DNA of 64,000 nt. Source: Escherichia coli. Lineage in GTDB: Bacteria > Pseudomonadota > Gammaproteobacteria > Enterobacterales > Enterobacteriaceae. Below are positions 41,081-42,531 of this stretch, one piece after another (the first letter of the stretch is position 1; each line of letters begins with the position of its first letter). A program made the position numbers and the translations under genes. Under the pieces are notes generated by a model. The model was given only the letters and a program-made list of their open reading frames with translations. It was not told the DNA's origin and did no database searches. The stretch is taken from the NCBI RefSeq assembly GCF_024502345.1, contig NZ_JALDNN010000001.1. One strand, 5' to 3'.

Positions 41081-41102
41081 CGCGCGGGCAATCTTGCCCG
41101 CG
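41081..41102 (+). terminator. Hairpin downstream of ppiA (possible terminator)
   Basis: GCGCGGGCA-atc-TTGCCCGCGC, weak T-tract after. Confidence 0.4.
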
Positions 41103-41176
41103 CTTCTGCTCTCCCGGCGTAACCCGGATTTGCCGCTTATACTTGTGGCAAATGGACACGTTCAGGGAGGCATCAA

Positions 41177-41344
41177 GTGAAGAAACTCACCGATAAGCAA
41201 AAGTCCCGTCTCTGGGAGCTTCAGCGTAATCGTAATTTTCAGGCCAGTCGCCGTCTTGAAGGCGTCGAGATGCCTTTAGTCACTCTTACTGCCGCAGAGG
41301 CTTTAGCGCGCCTTGAAGAGCTGAGGAGTCACTATGAGCGATAA
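41177..41344 (+). CDS. yhfG: Small protein YhfG (55 aa), upstream partner of fic; below the ORF-track cut-off
   Basis: GTG at 41177 (GGGAGG SD 7 nt upstream) to TAA 41342-41344: [55 protein letters not shown]; 11-nt overlap with fic. Confidence 0.8.
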
Positions 41345-41936
41345 ATTCGGCGAAGGGCGCGATCCGTATCTTTATCCAGGCCTTGATATCATGCGTAACC
41401 GGCTGAACATCCGCCAGCAGCAGCGGCTGGAACAGGCCGCTTACGAAATGACGGCGCTGCGTGCTGCGACCATTGAGCTTGGTCCGCTGGTGCGCGGTTT
41501 ACCGCATTTGCGAACTATCCATCGCCAGCTGTATCAGGATATTTTCGACTGGGCAGGGCAACTGCGTGAAGTTGATATTTATCAGGGTGATACGCCGTTC
41601 TGCCACTTTGCTTATATCGAAAAAGAGGGCAATGCCCTGATGCAGGATCTGGAGGAAGAAGGTTATCTGGTTGGCCTGGAGAAAACGAAGTTCGTCGAGC
41701 GGCTGGCGCATTACTATTGTGAAATCAACGTGCTGCATCCCTTCCGGGTGGGAAGTGGTCTGGCACAGCGGATCTTCTTCGAGCAACTGGCGATTCATGC
41801 CGGATATCAACTGAGCTGGCAGGGTATCGAAAAAGAGGCCTGGAATCAGGCAAATCAGAGTGGGGCAATGGGGGATCTCACCGCGTTGCAGATGATATTT
41901 AGCAAAGTGGTAAGCGAAGCCGGGGAATCTGAGTAA
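41334..41936 (+). CDS. fic: Fic-family protein
   Basis: 200-aa [27 protein letters not shown]...; Fic motif region reads [12 protein letters not shown]. Confidence 0.92.
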
Positions 41937-41967
41937 AATAGCGCGGTTATTTCGTACCGGAGCCGCC

Positions 41968-42531
41968 ATGATCCTGCTTATAGATAACTACGATTCTTTT
42001 ACCTGGAACCTCTACCAGTACTTTTGTGAACTGGGGGCGGATGTGCTGGTTAAGCGCAACGATGCGTTGACGCTGGCGGATATCGACGCCCTTAAACCAC
42101 AAAAAATTGTCATCTCACCTGGCCCCTGTACGCCAGATGAAGCCGGGATCTCCCTTGACGTTATTCGCCACTATGCCGGGCGCTTGCCGATTCTTGGCGT
42201 CTGCCTCGGTCATCAGGCAATGGCGCAGGCATTTGGCGGTAAAGTTGTGCGCGCCGCAAAGGTCATGCACGGCAAAACCTCGCCGATTACACATAACGGT
42301 GAGGGCGTATTTCGGGGGCTGGCAAATCCACTTACCGTGACACGCTACCATTCGCTGGTGGTGGAACCTGGCTCATTACCAGCGTGCTTTGACGTGACGG
42401 CCTGGAGCGAAACCCGCGAGATTATGGGGATTCGCCATCGCCAGTGGGATCTGGAAGGTGTGCAGTTCCATCCAGAAAGTATTCTTAGCGAACAAGGACA
42501 TCAACTGCTGGCTAATTTCCTGCATCGCTGA
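41968..42531 (+). CDS. pabA: Aminodeoxychorismate synthase glutamine amidotransferase component
   Basis: 187-aa [22 protein letters not shown]...; class I GATase catalytic Cys (GVCLGHQ). Confidence 0.95.

Follow-up and report, generated by a model that had tools for sequence, protein, structure and literature searches.

The question raised by this locus is what the Fic protein of E. coli does with an active site in which three residues of the canonical AMP transferase motif have been replaced, and what part is played by YhfG, the small protein encoded just upstream of it. EcFicT, as the Fic protein has been renamed, was the protein on which the Fic family was founded, and for about 40 years the question of its biochemical function has stood open; a paper of June 2026 states that its mechanism 'remains elusive'. 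Both the observation and the reading given below are already known for this exact pair, having been published in 2016 by Stanger, Harms, Dehio and Schirmer (PLoS One; PMC5033356), who reported the structures 5JFF and 5JFZ and gave the genes the names ecficT and ecficA. Our analysis of a 64,000-nt stretch of E. coli DNA, referred to here as the window, adds nothing beyond that structure paper and does not make the question of the founding Fic protein more testable.

The gene pair and its expression signals

Two open reading frames read from the window make up the pair, one of 55 amino acids with a GTG start (41177-41344, plus strand) and one of 200 amino acids with an ATG start (41334-41936, plus strand). 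The original prediction of a GTG-initiated, 55-codon yhfG that overlaps fic by 11 nt is therefore borne out. The features on which the argument rests are given below, where "six loci" stands for the window and five other enterobacterial loci.

41082..41103, plus strand: terminator-like hairpin of ppiA with a 9-bp GC-rich stem and a 4-nt loop, which parts ppiA from yhfG-fic (-21.6 kcal/mol, z = -3.3)
41130..41151, plus strand: promoter-like block TTGCCGCTTATACTTGTGGCAA, with the -10 hexamer TATACT at 41138-41143 and no good -35 (cross-genus alignment)
41164..41170, plus strand: Shine-Dalgarno sequence of yhfG, AGGGAGG, 6 nt before the GTG; CAGGGAGG (41163-41170) is invariant in the six loci
41177..41344, plus strand: yhfG (EcFicA), a FicA-type small inhibitory protein (PF10832, PRK10204, identity to 5JFF chain B, dN/dS)
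41246..41263, plus strand: inhibitory motif SRRLEG of YhfG, residues 24-29, which fits [S/T]xxxE[G/N]; S24 and E28 contact R146 of Fic
41323..41328, plus strand: Shine-Dalgarno sequence of fic, GAGGAG, within the yhfG coding sequence; its GGAG core is kept in 6/6 loci
41334..41344, plus strand: the 11-nt overlap ATGAGCGATAA, from the fic start codon to the yhfG stop codon, identical in 6/6 loci
41334..41936, plus strand: fic (EcFicT), a class I Fic-fold protein (PF02661, PRK10347, PDB 5JFZ/5JFF, dN/dS)
41736..41771, plus strand: degenerate Fic signature, residues 135-146, compared with HxFx[D/E]GNGRxxR
41968..42531, plus strand: pabA, 31 nt 3' of fic on the same strand; context outside the pair (ORF calls, RefSeq annotation)

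An open reading frame of 55 codons is by itself no proof of a gene, and the ORF list of the window holds dozens of that size. We take yhfG to be a real gene because its product has full-length matches to Pfam PF10832 (E=5e-24, 84 bits, cut-off 22.6) and to the NCBIfam equivalog PRK10204 (E=2e-37, 127 bits, cut-off 77), because chain B of PDB 5JFF has the identical sequence (E=6e-31), and because the Shine-Dalgarno sequence is invariant and dN/dS is about 0.09. The larger protein matches the Fic/DOC family PF02661 (E=1.3e-13, 52 bits, cut-off 24), NCBIfam PRK10347 (E=1e-129) and chain A of 5JFZ/5JFF (E=1e-133), from which, as crystallised from a K-12-derived sequence, it departs by only two natural differences, H27R and A118T. 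The gene names that had been proposed, yhfG and fic, are thus right by family model and by structure. As the window protein has the wild-type G55, its gene is not the fic-1 allele.

Antisense to fic, a reading frame of 156 amino acids (41499-41969, minus strand) extends as far as the start codon of pabA. Pfam gave no match for it, and among the six loci the longest stretch without an antisense stop ranges from 96 to 225 amino acids; we regard this frame as most likely a mere consequence of the sense reading frame. No RNA element came up when the entire window was scanned with Rfam and for tRNAs.

Upstream of yhfG, the hairpin stem CGCGGG/CCCGCG is invariant in the six loci and its loop varies, and TTGCCGCTTATACTTGTGGCAA is almost invariant there, whereas the rest of the ppiA-yhfG intergenic region is variable. 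A sigma-70 consensus scan called no promoter upstream of yhfG, and the TATACT block was seen only by alignment across genera. The pair has been reported to belong to the RpoS regulon (PMC2907692, PMC5098033). Its conservation and sequence suggest that the TATACT block is probably a conserved RpoS-type promoter of yhfG-fic, which fits the reported RpoS dependence. From the 11-nt overlap and the fic ribosome-binding site inside yhfG, translational coupling from yhfG to fic is probable, and such coupling would favour a 1:1 complex of the two products. A scan of the 31-nt gap between fic and pabA found no terminator-like site, and pabA is likely to be co-transcribed; in our reading yhfG and fic share one transcript, with pabA downstream.

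Inheritance and selection of the pair

The gene order at the locus is nirB-tsgA-ppiA-yhfG-fic-pabA-argD-yhfK, and yhfG, fic and pabA are all annotated in E. coli RefSeq records. Of 5426 complete E. coli genomes, 5425 carry the ppiA-yhfG-fic-pabA region, nearly always as a single chromosomal copy. The same order, the adjacency of fic and pabA included, recurs in Salmonella, Klebsiella, two Citrobacter lineages and Leclercia, and all five other enterobacterial loci carry a 55-aa yhfG with the same 11-nt overlap. Stanger and colleagues likewise described the close homologs of EcFicT as belonging to enterobacteria, as lying syntenically between ppiA and pabA and as passed on vertically (PMC5033356).

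Both genes are clearly under strong purifying selection. Pairwise Nei-Gojobori dN/dS is about 0.09 for yhfG and about 0.06 for fic, next to 0.06 for pabA and 0.03 for ppiA, values that are approximate since dS is saturated between genera. These ratios of 0.06-0.09, together with the 92 of 200 Fic positions that are invariant in 113 homologs, rule out a decaying pseudogene.

The original prediction had also called the arrangement toxin-antitoxin-like. That holds for its architecture, which is that of class I FicT/FicA: a small upstream gene encodes a [S/T]xxxE[G/N] motif within a PF10832 protein, and by sequence match to the 5JFF/5JFZ chains the inhibitory Glu sits on the last Arg of the Fic motif (R2). 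It does not hold for a mobile module, as the pair is core-chromosomal, syntenic and vertically inherited. An ordinary mobile TA module was ruled out on the same grounds, EcFicT-type genes being nearly absent from plasmids and phages, and the pair is not distributed in the patchy, mobile manner that is usual for type II TA modules. At an identity of at least 95%, an EcFicT-type gene occurs in only four plasmid records; canonical Fic genes, by contrast, are frequent on plasmids and phages. The matches of high identity that are labelled 'phage' or 'plasmid' turned out to be contigs of chromosomal origin or very small fragments placed in such collections. One record, an 11-kb Klebsiella oxytoca 'plasmid' (NZ_CP069919.1), holds a yhfG-fic pair whose Fic is 99.5% identical in protein sequence to that of the window; Fic encoded on Klebsiella chromosomes is about 84% identical to it. 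This record looks like a misfiled E. coli chromosomal fragment or a contamination.

Relatives with the canonical motif (37-40% identity) are also paired with YhfG-family antitoxins, in which the motif reads SLRLEG, and the 11-nt overlap occurs once among them. Their genomic contexts are unrelated, and defence or TA genes lie near two of three loci (HigB/HTH in one, AbiEii and Toprim in the other). Because the canonical relatives sit in unrelated contexts and EcFicT-type genes are rare on plasmids and phages, we judge the enterobacterial FicTA to be domesticated: yhfG-fic looks like a vertically inherited descendant of a class I FicTA module in which the active site was reshaped in situ. As a separate observation, the Fic reading frame (41334-41933, plus strand) matches the PADLOC model PDLC04838 of PDC-S04 over its full length (E=4e-75), PDC-S04 being no more than a candidate defence system; this fic lies between the housekeeping genes ppiA and pabA, not in a defence island.

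The remodelled active site and its possible function

The canonical signature of Fic AMP transferases, HxFx[D/E]GNGRxxR, is not found in EcFicT. At residues 135-146 the motif has V in place of D/E at position 5, S in place of N at position 7 and L in place of the first Arg (R1) at position 9, and it retains the His, the Phe, both Gly and R2. These are the three replacements (acidic residue, Asn and first Arg) to which the original prediction had pointed. They are not peculiar to one strain: HPF[RC][LIVF]G[SNC]G[LMI][AV]QR describes all 120 of the closest database homologs (at least 79% identity), and R1 is an Arg, or position 5 an acid, in 0 of these 120. We also took the representatives of clusters at 50% identity, 128 of which bear the motif among the best 150. 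In this distant set R1 is kept in 120 of the 128, the acidic residue in 119 and the Asn in 123, and the exceptions are sequences of the EcFicT clade and one unrelated protein of 511 amino acids.

An alignment against other Fic proteins, of the kind put forward as one way to check the claim, was made column by column with 113 full-length EcFicT-like and 107 canonical class I proteins. Besides position 139 (hydrophobic in place of E/D) and position 143 (hydrophobic in place of R), the EcFicT clade has A36 where the canonical proteins have E, Y67 where they have F, F71 where they have Y and Q84 where they have K; in the flap, which is the target dock, its E79, Y83 and Q84 stand against T/S, S/A and K. 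This comparison reproduces the published specificity positions (PMC5033356). Common to both groups are H135, G140, G142, R146 and N132 of the adenine pocket, and within the 113 full-length EcFicT-like homologs H135, the glycines of the anion nest, R146 and N132 are invariant.

Two side observations concern proteins with altered motifs. The first (P0122; 1011-1613 of a Logan contig from ERR4228981, L007) occupies the ppiA-[x]-pabA-argD locus of an E. coli relative as a single reading frame of 200 amino acids, in which approximately the first 30 residues of YhfG are fused to Fic from about residue 35, with a net deletion of about 157 nt. Its Fic motif HPFFVGSGRAQR keeps R1 and already has the V and the S, and its antitoxin motif reads SSRLDI, with Asp in place of Glu. 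It could be a natural conversion of a class I pair into a class II-like single chain and at the same time an intermediate in the degeneration of the motif, though it is known from one contig and is maybe an assembly artefact. Judged by this protein, the replacements of D/E, N and R1 are suggested to have come stepwise. The second (P0248; L008:2768-4536, JGI metagenome 3300002504) is a distant FicT of 511 amino acids with a C-terminal KfrB-like domain and, upstream with a 4-nt overlap, an antitoxin gene of the VbhA family. Its motif HPFRRGNGLAIR represents an independent loss of R1 outside the enterobacterial clade, with Arg replacing the acidic residue.

The changes at these positions bear directly on the view that EcFicT is a canonical FicT toxin, one that AMPylates gyrase and topoisomerase IV, inhibits growth and is neutralised by YhfG. 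Two reviews list the protein in this way (the table of PMC8097203 and section 4.2 of PMC10886550), with no new data there, and the same assumption is built into the NCBI product name 'putative adenosine monophosphate-protein transferase Fic'. It would seem that the reviews extend to EcFicT what holds for VbhT and YeFicT. The authors of the primary work found no adenylylation and call EcFicT 'toxin-like' (PMC5033356), the whole clade lacks R1 and the Mg ligand, and the locus is core and syntenic rather than mobile; we consider a canonical toxin the least probable of all the readings weighed here, and very improbable in itself.

What is known of the complex comes largely from the same study (PMC5033356). 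EcFicT assembles with EcFicA into a stable 1:1 complex in the crystal and in solution, with a Tm of 63 C; YhfG wraps Fic, and its SRRLEG motif reaches the active site, where E28 forms a salt bridge with R146 (R2). The motif is degenerate in that R1 has become Leu and the Mg-binding acid a hydrophobic residue, and the authors could demonstrate neither auto-adenylylation nor adenylylation of a target, not even when the inhibition motif carried a mutation (E28G). The E28G antitoxin lowers the Tm of the complex by 10 C. A conserved hydrophobic groove is lined by subgroup-specific residues, and the new pocket was taken to suggest a substrate that is still to be found. Across the six loci the YhfG motif is kept as S-R-[R/L]-L-E-G. 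The conservation of E28 is no proof of catalytic gating, because E28 also stabilises the complex.

These observations lead us to the reading that we favour, at a probability of roughly 0.55: EcFicT may be a Fic-fold enzyme, gated by YhfG, that acts on a phosphate-containing substrate other than ATP, one without the Mg-pyrophosphate part, and on a new target. The proposal would work as follows. SRRLEG of YhfG would occupy the active site, and the clamp between Glu28 and Arg146 would gate Fic. Binding of ATP and Mg would have been lost, given that R1, which holds the ATP beta-phosphate, is Leu, Met or Ile in the clade, that the Mg-binding acid is Val, Leu or Ile, and that the Glu that partners R1 is Ala36; EcFicT would then not be an ATP-dependent AMP transferase, in keeping with the published assays. 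His135, the Gly-x-Gly anion nest, Arg146, Asn132 and the clade-specific residues of the pocket and the flap would serve the new reaction, with the inhibitory motif kept in YhfG. The enzyme would be active in stationary phase or under stress, and its target would be something other than GyrB or ParE. We favour an enzyme because the His, the anion nest, R2, the base pocket and the YhfG motif are invariant, and because the replaced positions are fixed as hydrophobic residues and do not drift. Against it stand the loss of three catalytic residues of canonical Fic, which fits a non-catalytic binding protein too, and the fact that no activity of EcFicT was found in the published assays (PMC5033356). 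The original prediction of altered or absent AMPylation, or of a different substrate chemistry, finds support in that paper, in which none was detected and a new pocket was described, and in the loss of the motif in 120 of 120 homologs.

If catalysis has been lost altogether, EcFicT would be a pseudoenzyme whose complex with YhfG only binds or scaffolds, for instance to keep a ligand or a partner sequestered in stationary phase. We see this as a possible but rather unlikely explanation. The silent assays agree with it, as does the loss of R1, the Mg-binding acid and E36 together, and a fic knockout is viable and behaves like the wild type (PMC5033356 introduction). It has more difficulty with the invariance of His135, the anion-nest glycines, R146 and N132 in the 113 full-length homologs, with an equally invariant S24/E28 motif directed into the active site, and with a dN/dS of 0.06 for fic: residues of the active site could drift if the fold or the surface alone mattered, although some of them have structural roles.

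Another way to account for what was lost and what was kept is that the complex might only erase, stripping an AMP-type or related nucleotide modification in the manner of a deAMPylase in stationary phase, with the 'writer' half-reaction gone. The parallel is the Pseudomonas Fic-1-AntF complex, for which deAMPylation of GyrB was reported in 2026, a reaction that uses Glu28 of AntF and needs a divalent metal. Fic-1 (PDB 8wt0) is the closest canonical homolog of solved structure, and the numbering of H135/R146 in Fic-1 and S24/E28 in AntF matches that of EcFicT and YhfG. The residues lost from EcFicT are the holders of the beta- and gamma-phosphates of ATP and of Mg; the protein retains Asn132 of the adenine pocket, the alpha-phosphate nest and His135, YhfG retains E28, and the EcFicT-YhfG complex is very stable. 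However, EcFicT has no acidic ligand at 139 for the divalent metal that the Pseudomonas reaction needs, and its flap residues E79, Y83 and Q84 differ from the canonical ones, which argues against AMPylated GyrB or ParE as the substrate. We therefore hold this eraser role to be improbable. If it were true, such a complex could possibly counteract foreign FicT toxins.

A Fic protein that is core, conserved and induced through RpoS, and whose active site has been rebuilt, probably conceals a post-translational chemistry or a target that has yet to be described.

Comparison with known Fic systems

The nearest system is the K-12 pair EcFicT/EcFicA (5JFF, 5JFZ), which is the same pair with the same motif, overlap and genomic context, and only strain-level polymorphism separates the two. 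Fic-1/AntF of Pseudomonas bijieensis 2P24 (8wt0) matches EcFicT with E=8e-49 over residues 1-196. It differs in its motif, HPFREGNGRAQR, and in that Fic-1 AMPylates GyrB and the complex with AntF deAMPylates it.

VbhT/VbhA of Bartonella schoenbuchensis (PDB 3SHG, 3ZC7, 3ZCB) shares the Fic fold (E=3e-33), a small upstream inhibitor whose [S/T]xxxE[G/N] Glu pairs with R2, and an N-terminal DPY segment. VbhT, in contrast, has the canonical HPFREGNGR, AMPylates GyrB and ParE, is plasmid-borne and carries a BID domain. The inhibitors belong to different families as well, VbhA to PF18495 with three helices and YhfG to PF10832 with two helices and a loop.

Doc has the motif HxFx[D/N][A/G]NKR and AnkX has HPFRDANGR, and both keep R1 and the acidic residue. 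Their motifs are variants of another kind than that of EcFicT, whose hydrophobic replacements are distinct. The two proteins, a kinase and a phosphocholine transferase, respectively, are nevertheless precedents within the Fic fold for a change of motif that redirects the chemistry (PMC5033356 introduction).
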